Assembly (NCBI RefSeq): GCF_016026235.1
Contig: NZ_CP065613.1
Reading direction: 5' to 3' (one strand)
Length of the DNA stretch: 64,000 bases
DNA from: Escherichia coli
Lineage (GTDB): Bacteria; Pseudomonadota; Gammaproteobacteria; Enterobacterales; Enterobacteriaceae
The notes beneath the pieces are model-generated. The model was given only the letters and a program-made list of their open reading frames with translations. It did no database searches and was not told the origin of the DNA. Positions 5,026-46,275 of the stretch are shown piece after piece. A program made the position numbers and the translations under genes. The first letter of the stretch is position 1. Every line of letters begins with the position of its first letter.

Positions 5026-8572
<3,547 letters not shown>

Positions 8573-8684
8573 ATAGCGCAATATTTCATCGTTGGTGCAA
8601 AAATGTAACGCACTGTGCACTGTCATAGTGCGTTTTCATTTTCAATCTTCTTAACTTCCTGCTCTCTTTCTCGTTTTTCATTTC

Positions 8685-8700
8685 TGGCACACCGCTTGCA
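8685..8700 (+). promoter_or_regulatory. sigma54 (RpoN) -24/-12 promoter TGGCAC-N5-TTGCA for glnK-amtB, with NtrC-type palindromes upstream (about 8590-8632)
   Basis: Exact TGGCAC N5 TTGCA at 8685-8700, about 50 nt upstream of glnK ATG; TGCAC-N7-GTGC palindrome at about 8616-8632. Confidence 0.75.
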
Positions 8701-8752
8701 ATACCTTCTTCGTGTAGCAGAACCATTACCGAATTCTGACCGGAGGGGATCT

Positions 8753-9091
8753 ATGAAGCTGGTGACCGTGATAATCAAACCATTCAAGCTGGAAGACGTT
8801 CGTGAAGCGTTATCTTCCATTGGTATTCAGGGCCTGACCGTCACCGAAGTGAAAGGTTTCGGGCGTCAGAAAGGGCATGCCGAGCTGTACCGGGGGGCGG
8901 AATACAGCGTCAACTTCCTGCCAAAAGTAAAAATTGATGTGGCGATTGCTGATGACCAACTCGATGAAGTGATCGATATCGTCAGTAAGGCGGCTTACAC
9001 CGGAAAAATTGGCGACGGCAAAATCTTCGTCGCTGAATTGCAACGCGTCATTCGTATTCGTACCGGCGAAGCCGACGAAGCGGCGCTGTAA
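8753..9091 (+). CDS. glnK: nitrogen regulatory protein PII-2 GlnK
   Basis: 112 aa PII protein MKLVTVIIKPFKLEDVREAL inside ORF 8615..9091. Confidence 0.95.
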   Translation: MKLVTVIIKPFKLEDVREALSSIGIQGLTVTEVKGFGRQKGHAELYRGAEYSVNFLPKVKIDVAIADDQLDEVIDIVSKAAYTGKIGDGKIFVAELQRVIRIRTGEADEAAL

Positions 9092-9274
9092 TCTCTGGCA
9101 CACAGCAACAGGAACGAAAAATGAAGATAGCGACGATAAAAACTGGGCTTGCTTCACTGGCGATGCTGCCGGGACTGGTAATGGCTGCACCTGCGGTGGC
9201 CGATAAAGCCGACAATGCGTTTATGATGATTTGTACTGCGCTGGTGCTGTTTATGACTATTCCGGGGATTGCCC

Positions 9275-10567
9275 CTGAGGGATCCCCAGAAAATTTAGTA
9301 AACCATTATCATATTGGTATACCGTTGCTGTAGAACTTTCAGCCCTGCGTCAAGTGACAGTGTGTTTAGTATGAGTGGAGAATGTCGAATCACATTCTCC
9401 GCCAGTTTTAATAACGAGATGACTCGCCTGTGCTTCACTGTATTTGCCTGATATTTATGATGTATCCCTTTGTTTTCCAGGCTGAAACCGCTTAACCACA
9501 TAATGATACTGGCTAATGTTGCGATCAGACTCAATACCGTGACCCGCCCGGATGAATGACTGGCACCAAACCGTAGTCCAAATCCCCAGCGAGGATTTTT
9601 TCATCCCTGAAATTTTGCTCAATTTGCATTCTACGGCTGTATAATTTCATTACCTGTTTTGGCGAGAACTCAGTACTGTTTGTGAAAATAAACCATGGTG
9701 ATTTCCCGGCAGTACGAGCTTTAGCCGTCACCGATGGTCTGGTTGCTCTTTCCTTCGAGCGTTTAAATCTACGACCTTTAGGCTTACTTTTATAAAGATA
9801 AAAATGCCCTTCATGTTGTGCATTTTTATCTCGACCCAGCAGGCCTTCACCTAAATAAATTGCTGTCGTTGATGCTTTTGTGCCTGAGTCCGACACCTTT
9901 TCCCAGCCATTACCAACATTGTAATAATGATTGCCCAGTACCCGGCAAATATAGGTCCAGCCACGGGAGCGGAGCTGTTGGAACCATCGCCCCTGAAAAC
10001 CGGCATCTGTAATAACAATGACATCAGTCCCGGGGGAAAAGCACTCAGCAAGCGATTCCAGAAAACGCTCATGTACATCTGCATTCGCTGTCTGTGATGA
10101 TGGAACGACACAACTCATCAACGGTAAAGAACGCCCGTCACATGCCAGGCTTGCCCGCAAAAGCTGAAAACGAGAGGCATGATAAGCACTCCAGTCAATG
10201 AGTATCACAACACGAGACATTCCCCGCGTAATCTTTTGGGTAATTCGCTGAAAAATGGTGGAAACCTCATTTTGCAAATGTCGATTCCCCAACAGTCGAT
10301 CCACCCGCTTTATTTTGTTTTTAACTGATGCCGTACCGGTTAAATGACGCCCGATACTGGTAAGTGTGAGGGAAGCGCCATTTATTACAGCATTAGTTGC
10401 GTCAATCAGTGATTTTTGACGGTAAAGATGCAAAGGGGCCAGTATGTTGTTAAGGAAATTTTGGCATAATGAACGTGCAGGCATAGTGGTGATCTCCTTG
10501 AAATTGTTAGCACAATCAATTAGATCACATCTCACTATGCCTGTCTTGTTTTCTGGGGATTCCTCAG
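9275..10567 (-). mobile_element. IS10-like insertion sequence (IS4 family), about 1.29 kb, imperfect terminal inverted repeats CTGAGGGATCCCC / CTGAGGAATCCCC, flanked by direct repeat (G)GGATTGCCC
   Basis: Terminal IRs read directly; flanking duplication at 9265-9274 and 10568-10577; internal transposase with IS4-family Y-R-E-K signature. Confidence 0.88.
9295..10484 (-). CDS. IS4-family (IS10-like) DDE transposase, apparently frameshifted (N-terminal frame 9531..10484, C-terminal frame 9295..about 9579)
   Basis: ORF track 9531..10649 and 9295..9534 both transposase-like, in different frames; YSRRMQIEQNFRDEK signature; AAGGAG SD upstream of ATG at 10484. Confidence 0.8.
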
Positions 10568-11728
10568 GGGATTGCCCTGTTTTACGGTGGGTTGATTCGC
10601 GGCAAAAACGTGCTGTCGATGCTGACGCAGGTGACGGTGACATTTGCACTGGTCTGTATTCTCTGGGTGGTTTACGGTTACTCGCTGGCGTTTGGTGAGG
10701 GCAACAACTTCTTCGGCAACATTAACTGGTTGATGCTGAAAAACATCGAACTGACGGCGGTGATGGGCAGCATTTATCAGTATATCCACGTAGCGTTTCA
10801 GGGATCGTTTGCCTGCATTACCGTAGGCTTGATAGTTGGGGCGCTGGCGGAACGAATCCGCTTCTCAGCTGTGTTGATTTTCGTGGTGGTATGGCTGACG
10901 CTCTCTTACATTCCAATTGCGCATATGGTCTGGGGCGGTGGTTTGCTGGCTTCTCACGGTGCGCTGGATTTCGCGGGTGGCACGGTGGTGCACATTAACG
11001 CCGCAATCGCCGGTCTGGTGGGCGCGTATCTGATAGGAAAACGCGTGGGCTTCGGTAAAGAGGCGTTTAAACCGCACAACCTGCCGATGGTCTTCACCGG
11101 GACTGCCATTCTCTATATCGGTTGGTTTGGCTTTAACGCCGGGTCAGCGGGCACGGCGAATGAAATCGCGGCACTGGCATTTGTGAATACTGTGGTCGCA
11201 ACGGCGGCGGCAATTCTTGGCTGGATCTTCGGTGAATGGGCGCTGCGTGGTAAGCCTTCACTGCTGGGGGCGTGTTCTGGCGCGATTGCCGGTCTGGTCG
11301 GCGTGACGCCAGCCTGTGGCTACATTGGTGTTGGCGGCGCGTTGATTATCGGCGTGGTAGCTGGTCTGGCGGGCTTGTGGGGCGTTACCATGCTCAAACG
11401 CTTGCTGCGGGTGGATGATCCCTGCGATGTCTTCGGTGTGCACGGCGTTTGTGGCATTGTCGGCTGTATCATGACCGGGATTTTTGCCGCCAGCTCGCTG
11501 GGCGGCGTGGGCTTCGCTGAAGGTGTGACGATGGGCCATCAGTTGCTGGTACAGCTGGAAAGCATTGCCATTACGATCGTCTGGTCCGGTGTGGTGGCAT
11601 TTATTGGCTACAAACTGGCGGATCTGACGGTTGGCCTGCGTGTGCCGGAAGAACAAGAGCGAGAAGGGCTGGACGTCAACAGTCACGGCGAGAATGCCTA
11701 TAACGCGTAACAAGCACTGCAAAAAACA

Positions 11729-11760
11729 GCCGGACGGTTTTCACCTCCGGCTATTTTTTT
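11729..11760 (+). terminator. Rho-independent terminator after amtB (hairpin GCCGGA...TCCGGC plus T-tract)
   Basis: GC hairpin followed by 8 T directly after amtB stop; also lies at the tesB 3' end on the opposite strand. Confidence 0.6.
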
Positions 11761-12619
11761 AATTGTGATTACGCATCACCCCTTCCTGAACGGTCGAGGC
11801 AACCAGTACGCCGTCATGGGTATAAAACTCACCGCGCACAAAGCCACGTGCGCTGGACGCCGAGGTGCTCTCCACGCTATACAGCAGCCATTCATTCAAA
11901 TTAAACGGGCGATGGAACCACATGGAATGGTCAATGGTGGCAATCTGAATCCCCGGTTCGAGAAAACCGATGCCGTGCGGCTGTAGAGCTACCGGCAGGA
12001 AGTTAAGATCAGAAGCGTAACCGAGCAGATACTGATGAACGCGCAGGTCATCCGGCACGCTACCATTTGCGCGGATCCACACCTGACGATGTGGTTCTGC
12101 GACGTGACCTTTCAGTGGGTTATGAAACTCCACCGGACGGACTTCCAGCGGACGATCGCAGATGAATTTATCTTTCAGCACTGGCGGCAGCAGGTGCGCC
12201 AGCGACTGGGCGATTTGCGTTTCCGAAGGCAGGCCATCAGGCGCTGGCGCGGACGGCATTGTTTTTTGATGTTCGAAACCCGCTTCTGGTGCCTGGAAAG
12301 AGGCCGTCATATAAAAAATCGGTTTGCCGTTTTGAATAGCAGCAACCCGGCGGGCGCTGAAGCTGTTACCGTCACGCAGCGTTTCGACATCATAAATAAT
12401 CGGTTTCTTACTATCGCCTGGGCGAAGAAAGTAGCTGTGAAACGAATGTACCAGCCGCTCTTCCGGGACGGTCTCTTTTGCAGCATACAAGGCCTGACCC
12501 ACGACCTGGCCGCCAAACACCTGGCGTAAACCTAAATCTTCACTCTGGCCGCGAAAGAGTCCTTCCTCAATTTTTTCCAGATTTAACAATGTCAGTAAAT
12601 TTTTTAGCGCCTGACTCAT
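11759..12619 (-). CDS. tesB: acyl-CoA thioesterase II
   Basis: 286 aa starting [20 protein letters not shown] inside ORF 11759..12703. Confidence 0.93.
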
Positions 12620-40693: not shown

Positions 40694-40931
40694 TCCGTCT
40701 CCTTTTCCTGGTGGTTATTGTCCATTTTTGGCCGGGGAAACCAAAATTACAGGTAATAGTTTATGACAATTTCATTGATGATGTTCATGAATAATTATTG
40801 AATTTTGCAGAAAAATGGAATTAGCTGCAAAAAAAAGCACGGATCGGAAAACAGAAGGCGGTTTAACAGAGGAAAGGCTTATGGCGACTGTAAAACGATG
40901 CAGCCAAAGTTTGCCTTTGGCTGCAATGAAA

Positions 40932-42369: not shown

Positions 42370-44022
42370 ATGAAATTATTGCAGCGGGGCGTGGCGTTAG
42401 CACTGTTAACCACATTTACACTGGCGAGTGAAGCTGCTCTGGCGTATGAGCAGGATAAAACCTACAAAATTACAGTTCTGCATACCAATGATCATCATGG
42501 GCATTTTTGGCGCAATGAATATGGCGAATATGGTCTGGCGGCGCAAAAAACGCTGGTGGATGGTATCCGCAAAGAGGTTGCGGCTGAAGGCGGTAGCGTG
42601 CTGCTACTTTCCGGTGGCGACATTAACACTGGCGTGCCCGAGTCTGACTTACAGGATGCCGAACCTGATTTTCGCGGTATGAATCTGGTGGGCTATGACG
42701 CGATGGCGATCGGTAATCATGAATTTGATAATCCGCTCACCGTATTACGCCAGCAGGAAAAGTGGGCCAAGTTCCCGTTGCTTTCCGCGAATATCTACCA
42801 GAAAAGTACTGGCGAGCGCCTGTTTAAACCGTGGGCGCTGTTTAAGCGTCAGGATCTGAAAATTGCCGTTATTGGTCTGACGACGGATGACACAGCGAAG
42901 TTAGGCAATCCAGAAAACTTCACCGATATTGAGTTCCGTAAGCCCGCCGATGAAGCGAAGCTGGTGATTCAGGAGCTGCAACAGACAGAAAAGCCAGACA
43001 TTATTATCGCGGCGACACATATGGGGCATTACGATAACGGCGATCACGGTTCTAACGCACCGGGCGATGTGGAGATGGCACGCGCGTTGCCTGCCGGATC
43101 GCTGGCGATGATTGTCGGCGGTCACTCGCAAGATCCAGTCTGTATGGCAGCGGAAAATAAAAAGCAGGTAGATTACGTTCCGGGTACGCCATGCAAACCG
43201 GATCAACAAAACGGCATCTGGATTGTACAGGCGCATGAGTGGGGCAAGTACGTTGGTCGGGCCGACTTTGAGTTTCGCAACGGCGAAATGAAAATGGTTA
43301 ACTACCAGCTGATTCCGGTGAACCTGAAGAAGAAAGTGACCTGGGAAGACGGGAAAAGCGAGCGCGTGCTGTACACCCCGGAAATCGCTGAAAACCAGCA
43401 AATGATCTCGCTGTTATCACCGTTCCAGAACAAAGGCAAAGCGCAGCTGGAAGTGAAAATAGGCGAAACCAATGGTCGTCTGGAAGGCGATCGTGACAAA
43501 GTGCGTTTTGTACAGACCAATATGGGGCGGTTGATTCTGGCAGCACAAATGGATCGCACTGGTGCCGACTTTGCGGTGATGAGCGGAGGAGGAATTCGTG
43601 ATTCTATCGAAGCTGGCGATATCAGCTATAAAAACGTGCTGAAAGTGCAGCCATTCGGCAATGTGGTGGTGTATGCCGACATGACCGGTAAAGAGGTGAT
43701 TGATTACCTGACAGCCGTCGCACAAATGAAGCCAGATTCAGGTGCCTACCCGCAATTTGCCAACGTTAGCTTTGTGGCGAAAGACGGCAAACTGAACGAC
43801 CTGAAAATCAAAGGCGAACCGGTCGATCCGGCGAAAACTTACCGTATGGCGACATTAAATTTCAATGCCACCGGCGGTGATGGCTATCCGCGCCTTGATA
43901 ACAAACCGGGCTATGTGAATACCGGCTTTATTGATGCCGAAGTGCTGAAAGCGTATATCCAGAAAAGCTCGCCGCTGGATGTGAGTATTTATGAACCGAA
44001 AGGTGAGGTGAGCTGGCAGTAA
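42370..44022 (+). CDS. ushA: periplasmic UDP-sugar hydrolase / 5'-nucleotidase UshA
   Basis: ORF track 550 aa with signal peptide. Confidence 0.96.
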   Translation: MKLLQRGVALALLTTFTLASEAALAYEQDKTYKITVLHTNDHHGHFWRNEYGEYGLAAQKTLVDGIRKEVAAEGGSVLLLSGGDINTGVPESDLQDAEPDFRGMNLVGYDAMAIGNHEFDNPLTVLRQQEKWAKFPLLSANIYQKSTGERLFKPWALFKRQDLKIAVIGLTTDDTAKLGNPENFTDIEFRKPADEAKLVIQELQQTEKPDIIIAATHMGHYDNGDHGSNAPGDVEMARALPAGSLAMIVGGHSQDPVCMAAENKKQVDYVPGTPCKPDQQNGIWIVQAHEWGKYVGRADFEFRNGEMKMVNYQLIPVNLKKKVTWEDGKSERVLYTPEIAENQQMISLLSPFQNKGKAQLEVKIGETNGRLEGDRDKVRFVQTNMGRLILAAQMDRTGADFAVMSGGGIRDSIEAGDISYKNVLKVQPFGNVVVYADMTGKEVIDYLTAVAQMKPDSGAYPQFANVSFVAKDGKLNDLKIKGEPVDPAKTYRMATLNFNATGGDGYPRLDNKPGYVNTGFIDAEVLKAYIQKSSPLDVSIYEPKGEVSWQ

Positions 44023-46015: not shown

Positions 46016-46037
46016 GGCCAAAACATCGCTTCATCTC

Positions 46038-46275
<238 letters not shown>

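Follow-up and report, generated by a model that had tools for sequence, protein, structure and literature searches.

An ISEc60 insertion interrupts amtB downstream of an intact glnK in a lineage of Escherichia coli

Structure of the glnK-amtB locus

A copy of the insertion sequence (IS) ISEc60 was found within amtB, downstream of an intact glnK, in a 64,000-nucleotide stretch of Escherichia coli DNA (assembly GCF_016026235.1, contig NZ_CP065613.1; this whole stretch is called the window below). The gene order, mdlA-mdlB-glnK-amtB with tesB convergent, is standard for E. coli, as judged from the open reading frame (ORF) listing and direct reading. All 112 residues encoded by glnK were identical to E. 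coli GlnK of PDB entries 1gnk and 2nuu, and the protein matched the Pfam P-II family (PF00543) as well as the NCBIfam GlnK equivalog NF007946, the latter with 236.8 bits against a cutoff of 181. A gene for a PII-family GlnK therefore lies directly upstream of amtB, and a predicted sigma-54 promoter and a putative upstream NtrC enhancer precede it, as expected of a glnK-amtB operon. The coordinates of these and the other features of the locus are collected in Table 1.

AmtB has 11 transmembrane (TM) helices, an outside N terminus and a cleaved signal peptide (PMC10433425). In the window, amtB extends from 9121 to 11710 and begins 30 nt after the glnK stop codon, with the same 30-nt spacing as in K-12. 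The gene follows the K-12 sequence to 9274, after which come the 1,293 bp of the IS. The break falls after nt 154 of amtB, at codon 51/52 and inside the first transmembrane helix (TM1), so that the Amt/AmtB ORF is split and no longer complete. A preliminary description of this DNA had reported glnK with its sigma-54 promoter as intact and amtB as inactivated by an insertion, and both statements held up; it had also placed the disruption 30 bp into amtB, a figure that is actually the distance from the glnK stop codon to the amtB start. The amtB frame continues into the IS and reaches a stop codon at 9331-9333, which gives a 70-aa chimeric ORF (9121-9333) present at NCBI as STL98532.1. On the other side of the element, the 3′ fragment matched Pfam Ammonium_transp (E = 1e-124) and positions 57 to 428 of the NCBIfam AmtB equivalog. 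Its first in-frame start codons are TTG 10592, GTG 10610 and ATG 10619, and direct reading revealed no convincing Shine-Dalgarno sequence upstream of these three.

To reconstruct the gene, 9275-10577 (the IS plus one copy of the flanking repeat) was deleted in silico. This produced a 1,287-nt ORF whose product was identical to AmtB (PDB 9cs5_A) at 428 of 428 residues. Since the excised ORF encodes an identical protein, the insertion is the sole lesion, with no secondary decay, and is recent. The operon in the window thus has the same genes and the same sigma-54/NtrC promoter sequence as that of K-12, with GlnK and the reconstructed AmtB both 100% identical. Judged from its sequence, amtB::ISEc60 is an ordinary, recent pseudogene made by insertion.

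Table 1. Features of the glnK-amtB::ISEc60 locus, with positions in the window
Feature	Position	Strand	Basis
Two adjacent NtrC-type dyads: TGCAAaaatgtaACGCA (8596-8612) and TGCACtgtcataGTGCG (8616-8632)	8596-8632	+	Direct reading; identical to K-12 MG1655
Predicted sigma-54 -24/-12 promoter of glnK-amtB, TGGCACaccgcTTGCA (TGGCAC-N5-TTGCA)	8685-8700	+	Exact motif, as in K-12
glnK, intact, 112 aa	8753-9091	+	Identity to PDB 1gnk/2nuu; Pfam PF00543; NCBIfam NF007946
amtB 5′ fragment: codons 1-51 plus one nt; signal peptide and most of TM1	9121-9274	+	Direct reading
Left copy of target-site duplication, GGGATTGCCC	9265-9274		Single copy in the FDAARGOS_943 empty site
ISEc60 (IS4 family, IS10-like subgroup), 1,293 bp	9275-10567	-	Identity to annotated copies; inverted repeats; transposase families
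Frameshifted transposase ORF: 297 native aa plus 21-aa out-of-frame tail	9531-10484	-	ORF listing, alignment
T6 homopolymer run (T7 elsewhere)	9596-9601		Alignment
Candidate pOUT-like extended -10, TGgCATAAT	10462-10470	+	Direct reading; CATAAT conserved in relatives but within coding sequence
Long hairpin enclosing the transposase Shine-Dalgarno and ATG (10484-10482)	10478-10543		Folding of both strands
Right copy of target-site duplication, GGGATTGCCC	10568-10577		Direct repeat
amtB 3′ fragment: codons 52-428 plus stop, sequence undamaged	10577-11710	+	Pfam, NCBIfam
Bidirectional intrinsic terminator, common to amtB and convergent tesB	11720-11763		Hairpin, T-runs on both strands
amtB::ISEc60 junction sequence, GGGGATTGCCCCTGAGGGATCCCCAG			

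The sigma-54 motif TGGCACaccgcTTGCA lies 53 nt 5′ of the glnK ATG and is the sole exact match in the 64 kb. With up to one mismatch allowed, 2.45 matches were expected by chance, and a single motif alone would be statistically unremarkable. The mdlB-glnK intergenic region is identical to that of K-12 MG1655 at every base but one (8646), and by this match the motif is predicted to be the native glnK promoter. The two NtrC-type dyads sit ~80-110 nt 5′ of the predicted transcription start; from general knowledge of glnKp, we take them to be a putative NtrC enhancer. A hairpin overlapping the dyads was flagged by the scan and may double as the mdlB terminator. A second sigma-54-like motif, TGGCACgcgcgTTGCC, with one mismatch, was found at 43076-43091, inside ushA according to coordinate mapping to FDAARGOS_943, the closest complete genome. 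It is consistent with the number of matches expected by chance.

ISEc60, the empty site and the distribution of the allele

The inserted element is bounded by 19-nt terminal inverted repeats, CTGAGGGATCCCCAGAAAA (9275-9293) and CTGAGGAATCCCCAGAAAA (10549-10567), that differ by one mismatch. Over its full 1,293 bp it was 99.5-99.9% identical at the nucleotide level to copies annotated as ISEc60 by PGAP, and its naming rests on this annotation of near-identical copies in genomes rather than on ISfinder. The annotated copies are found on E. coli chromosomes and plasmids (enteroinvasive E. coli [EIEC] CFSAN029787, FDAARGOS_943) and on plasmids of S. dysenteriae and E. albertii. They have the same inverted repeats as the copy in the window and the same type of 10-bp GGGA...CYC flanking repeat. 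The transposase matched Pfam DDE_Tnp_1 (PF01609, E = 2e-19), and the intact reference ISEc60 transposase, of 396 aa (WP_001111632.1), matched the NCBIfam IS4-family model NF033591 with 360.5 bits (cutoff, 152). An IS4-family DDE transposase, near-identity to a named element, and inverted repeats together with a target-site duplication all support the assignment to ISEc60. The minus strand encodes the transposase (ATG at 10484-10482), and the 5′ end of the gene faces the amtB 3′ fragment. No further ISEc60 ends were detected in the 64-kb window, which holds this single copy only.

The ISEc60 transposase was 52% identical to that of ISSfl1 and 36% identical, over 93% of its length, to those of IS10/ISVsa5 and IS10A. 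In the preliminary description the element had been called a member of the IS10 family. That was correct as to family and subgroup, but with only 36% amino acid identity to IS10 in the transposase, ISEc60 is by sequence a relative of IS10 and not IS10 itself. With IS10/Tn10 (ISVsa5, IS10A; pIN, pOUT, RNA-OUT) it also shares a related terminal sequence, CTGAnGAATCCCC. The two elements differ in length (1,293 bp for ISEc60 and 1,329 bp for IS10) and, seemingly, in the size of the target duplication, which is 10 bp for ISEc60 (with a boundary uncertainty of +/-1 nt) and 9 bp for IS10. Four independent ISEc60 insertions, the one in the window and three other copies aligned with it, carry the 10-bp flanking repeats GGGATTGCCC, GGGATCGCCC, GGGACTGCTC and GGGATATCCC. 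The target is near-palindromic (GGGAY..CYC) and similar to the element's own end, GGGATCCCC.

This copy of ISEc60 does not contain an intact, autonomous transposase gene. Where it has T6 (9596-9601), all other ISEc60 copies examined have T7, among them the three aligned copies, and the same amtB::ISEc60 locus in assemblies GCA_900449985.1 and GCA_002467135.1 has T7 and an intact transposase. The 1-nt deletion shifts the frame after residue 297 of 396, just beyond the ...YSRRMQIEQNFRDEK motif, with loss of the C-terminal 99 aa; the remainder of the gene runs in another frame to 9295. The shortened run is either a private frameshift of the transposase or a sequencing error, which is possible at a homopolymer. 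If the frameshift is real, this copy could transpose only when other copies provide transposase in trans. Slippage on the A6 run, programmed or transcriptional, was considered as a way of restoring the transposase frame and judged unlikely, as the run is too short.

The empty site was found in FDAARGOS_943. Both flanks of the IS matched this genome at 99.9%; there they are contiguous, overlap by exactly the 10-bp repeat, and form an intact annotated amtB. Checking the direct repeat against this site left its boundary ambiguous by +/-1 nt. The window and FDAARGOS_943 are colinear across 64 kb with ~0.05% single-nucleotide polymorphisms (SNPs). They differ by 33 SNPs outside an array of repetitive extragenic palindromic (REP) repeats, two homopolymer indels, one extra REP-type unit and this IS. 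ISEc60 was present at no fewer than 36 places in FDAARGOS_943. The insertion in amtB shows that the element was active after the split between this lineage and its nearest sequenced relative.

Three of the SNPs (10982, 11264 and 11615) lie within the 1.1 kb of the amtB 3′ fragment, where 0.6 would be expected (Poisson P ~0.02, uncorrected). The protein encoded by the window allele is that of K-12, and it is the intact gene of FDAARGOS_943 that has T187S and two synonymous changes. The cluster was therefore rejected as a sign of relaxed selection, since T187S, the sole missense change, lies in the genome with the intact gene. Elsewhere in the window, the only other indel in 63 kb is in the fsr-ybaL intergenic region (~40822-40829; A8 in the window and A7 in FDAARGOS_943), and a tandem REP/BIME-type array at 46037-46274 (GCCGGATAAGGCGTT[CT]ACGCCGCATCCGGC...) has one ~101-bp unit more than in FDAARGOS_943. 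FDAARGOS_943 also carries a 155-kb IncFII plasmid (NZ_CP065616.1). Its positions 1-50000, which were inspected, are an IS mosaic (IS3, IS21, IS66/ISSfl3, ISSso6, IS1 and IS629) with a truncated pseudogene for an NEL-type (ipaH-like) E3 ligase, phoC, and an F4/K88-like fimbrial operon. This content hints at a Shigella/EIEC-related ancestry of the lineage.

The 70-aa chimeric ORF, looked up by exact match, occurred on 10 contigs of other NCBI assemblies. Among the matches listed were GCA_900449985.1, in which a 4.56-Mb contig spans both junctions, GCA_002467135.1 and GCA_001907385.1; the protein (STL98532.1) is labelled E. coli. The loci in these three assemblies were identical to the window over 3.4-6.2 kb, apart from T7 in the two that cover the run. 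Because at least three further E. coli assemblies in public databases have the same junction, we regard amtB::ISEc60, on this sequence identity, as a clonal lineage marker and not an artefact. No account of this allele was found in the literature on ISEc60, on amtB insertions or pseudogenes, on the carrier assemblies or on FDAARGOS_943.

To determine how often amtB is interrupted, three queries tiling most of the gene (nt 1-372, 373-827 and 828-1287) were compared with 5,426 complete E. coli genomes, a survey that detects large insertions only and not point mutations. Among the 5,423 genomes carrying amtB, the gene was uninterrupted by a large insertion in 5,422. The sole exception was E. coli 23CRST001 (NZ_AP045758.1), where ISVsa5 (IS10R-like) follows ~nt 99 of amtB and glnK is intact. 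Like the allele in the window, this is a natural insertion, of independent origin, in which an IS10-group element entered the 5′ end of amtB and left the upstream glnK intact. The two nevertheless differ in element, site and orientation (in 23CRST001 the transposase is on the amtB strand), and the strains are unrelated.

The right end of ISEc60 and outward transcription

The hairpin at the right end of the element folded with a minimum free energy of -31.6 kcal/mol (z = -5.35) on the plus strand and -37.9 kcal/mol (z = -6.46) on the minus strand, which is the transposase strand. The transposase Shine-Dalgarno sequence and ATG are located in its 3′ arm, so that a stable stem-loop covers the start of transposase translation, as in IS10-type antisense control. 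A U-rich tract, TCTTGTTTTCT, directly follows the hairpin. The architecture is kept in two ISEc60 relatives (85% and 82% nucleotide identity), in ISSfl1 and in IS10A. In ISSfl1, the hairpin has two compensatory pairs, and two A.C mismatches on the sense strand are G.U pairs on the antisense strand. Antisense folding of ISSfl1 was better than sense folding (-29.6 versus -25.3 kcal/mol), a pattern that would be expected if an RNA-OUT-like antisense RNA were the selected product. This suggests that ISEc60, its relatives and ISSfl1 encode an uncharacterised, predicted RNA-OUT-like antisense RNA of ~70 nt that is missed by the Rfam model.

Both IS10 and ISEc60 have a long hairpin whose 3′ arm holds the transposase start codon, ~85-110 nt away from the end of the element. 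The ISEc60 hairpin corresponds to the IS10 RNA-IN/RNA-OUT stem. A candidate pOUT-like extended -10 element (TGgCATAAT) with a poor -35 reads toward the amtB 3′ fragment, and its predicted start (~10477) is at the base of the hairpin, 5 nt past the transposase ATG. The IS10 pOUT start has the same 5-nt offset. IS10 RNA-OUT, an antisense RNA of 69 nt, is complementary to the region where translation is initiated, and its end lies at nt 47, within the element (PMC5006887). While IS10 yields this RNA from the corresponding end region (PMC5006887), the outward promoter of ISEc60 is only a candidate.

At the right IS end, a consensus promoter scan detected no canonical, outward-facing sigma-70 site, and it did not call TGgCATAAT; the promoter-like sites that it did report were no more numerous than in shuffled sequences. 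Likewise, an Rfam scan of 8400-11900 at E <= 10 detected neither RNA-OUT nor any other meaningful family, weak 'Thr_leader' and small-RNA matches being explained by the bidirectional terminator that amtB shares with tesB. The preliminary description had raised the possibility of an outward-reading promoter acting on the amtB 3′ fragment. IS10 carries pOUT at the 5′ end of its transposase gene, and a promoter in that place here would read in the sense direction of amtB. The orientation, the IS10-like hairpin and a candidate -10 agree with that proposal, but no promoter was called and RNA-OUT was not matched. Given the orientation of the element and the conserved IS10-like hairpin, outward transcription into the 3′ fragment is plausible. 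The hairpin is followed by TCTTGTTTTCT, and for this reason a transcript of ~70 nt that stops inside the IS, before its boundary, would be the likeliest product, and amtB would receive read-through only. Should a transcript reach the 3′ fragment, it would probably be functionally irrelevant because the fragment lacks the signal peptide, TM1 and a convincing ribosome-binding site.

Expected physiology and alternative explanations

We consider it very probable that the locus carries a recent and simple amtB null allele made by transposition of ISEc60 into codon 51/52. The gene structures, junctions, empty site and distribution across lineages are seen in the sequences themselves; from the structure of the locus we infer the following transcription pattern, polarity and phenotype. 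Under nitrogen limitation, the native NtrC/sigma-54 promoter should still drive glnK-amtB, and GlnK should be made normally. Translation of amtB would end 19 codons into the IS and give a 70-aa peptide in which the signal peptide and most of TM1 are followed by an IS-derived tail of 19 aa. The operon transcript would then run antisense through ~1.3 kb of untranslated IS and would likely end there, through Rho-dependent polarity or else at a weak hairpin (9375-9402). The cell would have no AmtB trimer.

In E. coli lacking amtB, growth is like that of the wild type down to ~20 uM NH4+ and slower below, and NH3 diffusion is the only route for ammonium (PMC3472687). The GlnK protein tightly binds and inhibits AmtB under ammonium-replete conditions (PMC3472687, citing Coutts 2002, Blauwkamp & Ninfa 2003 and Javelle 2004). 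As judged from laboratory ΔamtB strains, cells with amtB::ISEc60 would be expected to grow more slowly only when external NH4+ is below ~20 uM or when the pH is acidic, and to take up no methylammonium. After an ammonium upshift there would be no sequestration of GlnK at the membrane, and all of the de-uridylylated GlnK would be free for NtrB and other cytoplasmic targets. The expected phenotype is thus the same as in engineered ΔamtB strains, with a defect below ~20 uM NH4+ and AmtB missing as a binding partner of GlnK (PMC3472687). These expectations support the consequences proposed in the preliminary description. In contrast with those strains, the allele described here is natural and IS-made, and it leaves behind a 70-aa N-terminal peptide and an undamaged 3′ fragment without a promoter or a ribosome-binding site.

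Two alternatives concern the RNA on either side of the IS. On the 5′ side, glnK might be impaired as well: the native 3′ end and terminator of the message are lost, the operon transcript now ends at an undefined point inside the IS, and transposase read-through or a weak minus-strand promoter-like site (9334-9305) would give RNA antisense to amtB′ and glnK. Such antisense transcription or polarity could destabilise the message and make the cell low in GlnK as well as null for AmtB. We regard this as unlikely. The insertion leaves the glnK promoter, ribosome-binding site and coding sequence, all upstream of it, intact; polarity works downstream and not upstream; transposase promoters of this group are weak; and the site at 9334-9305 is a 9-of-12 match of a kind found at chance level (5 found versus 3.6 expected). 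On the 3′ side, the transposase 5′ end abuts a fragment in which every residue downstream of codon 52 is intact, the IS10-like hairpin is conserved across the subgroup, and the start predicted from TGgCATAAT has the IS10 offset. A pOUT-like promoter could in principle transcribe this fragment, and an N-truncated AmtB starting at TTG 10592, GTG 10610 or ATG 10619 could retain transport or GlnK docking. This partial rescue is highly improbable. The canonical promoter and Rfam scans were both negative, and the in-frame starts have no credible Shine-Dalgarno sequence before them. The 69-nt pOUT RNA of IS10 stops inside the element (PMC5006887), and with a U-rich tract here too, most transcripts should end before the junction. 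Moreover, AmtB is N-out with 11 TM helices (PMC10433425), and a fragment that has lost the signal peptide and TM1 is unlikely to be inserted correctly or to form trimers.

An insertion misplaced by the assembler must also be weighed, as ISEc60 is multi-copy in the lineage and two short-read contigs end within the IS. The chance of such an artefact is close to nil: the perfect 10-bp duplication matches the single-copy empty site, the left junction occurs on 10 contigs in total, and an independent assembly (GCA_900449985.1) has both junctions in a single contig of 4.56 Mb. Inactivation of amtB could also have been positively selected. Under that explanation, the loss, which would keep GlnK permanently off the membrane, was favoured as an IS-rich, Shigella/EIEC-like and perhaps invasive or host-restricted lineage emerged; possible benefits are less futile ammonium cycling or changed GlnK/Ntr signalling. 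Several assemblies of the lineage do share the allele; the large amtB interruption in 23CRST001, the only other one among the 5,423 genomes, is likewise of IS10 type and within the first ~100 nt; and the Shigella-type IS elements and ipaH-like NEL E3-ligase pseudogene on the FDAARGOS_943 plasmid fit a reductive-evolution lifestyle. However, clonal inheritance alone accounts for the sharing, and two events in more than 5,400 genomes indicate rarity, not convergence. FDAARGOS_943, the closest relative, keeps an intact amtB, and neither secondary decay nor other lesions in nitrogen genes were seen in the window. Finally, with an element as active as ISEc60, random insertions are expected. On balance, adaptive loss is quite unlikely.

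The simplest reading of the null allele is instead that amtB underwent neutral or near-neutral decay because cells in ammonium-rich, host-associated habitats can do without it; the effects of losing AmtB would be small in such habitats, and ISEc60 is very active in the lineage. Three points weigh against the null-allele explanation. That 5,422 of 5,423 genomes have an uninterrupted amtB argues that the gene is normally under purifying selection, so a neutral loss is not guaranteed. In addition, the altered 3′ end of the glnK mRNA may bear on its stability, and an IS10-like outward promoter might, by analogy, allow some transcription of the amtB 3′ fragment.

The chief gain is a negative one: interruption of amtB is almost never seen in complete E. 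coli genomes (1 of 5,423), and the allele described here, while rare, is mechanistically ordinary. Its importance is limited. All of its components are known, engineered ΔamtB strains have already revealed the physiology that it would imply, and the chimeric ORF is already in public databases. What little novelty is left lies in a possible selected loss and in the IS10-like antisense module of ISEc60, which is uncharacterised. As a natural E. coli lineage that is null for amtB and intact for glnK, it could serve as a natural control in studies of AmtB-GlnK signalling, and the allele could serve as a clonal marker.

Just beyond the end of the window, at 2310731-2316649 of FDAARGOS_943, copies of IS1A interrupt allB and sit between hyi and gcl in the allantoin cluster. 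These insertions are a further instance of IS-mediated decay of nitrogen-source genes in the lineage, outside the window.

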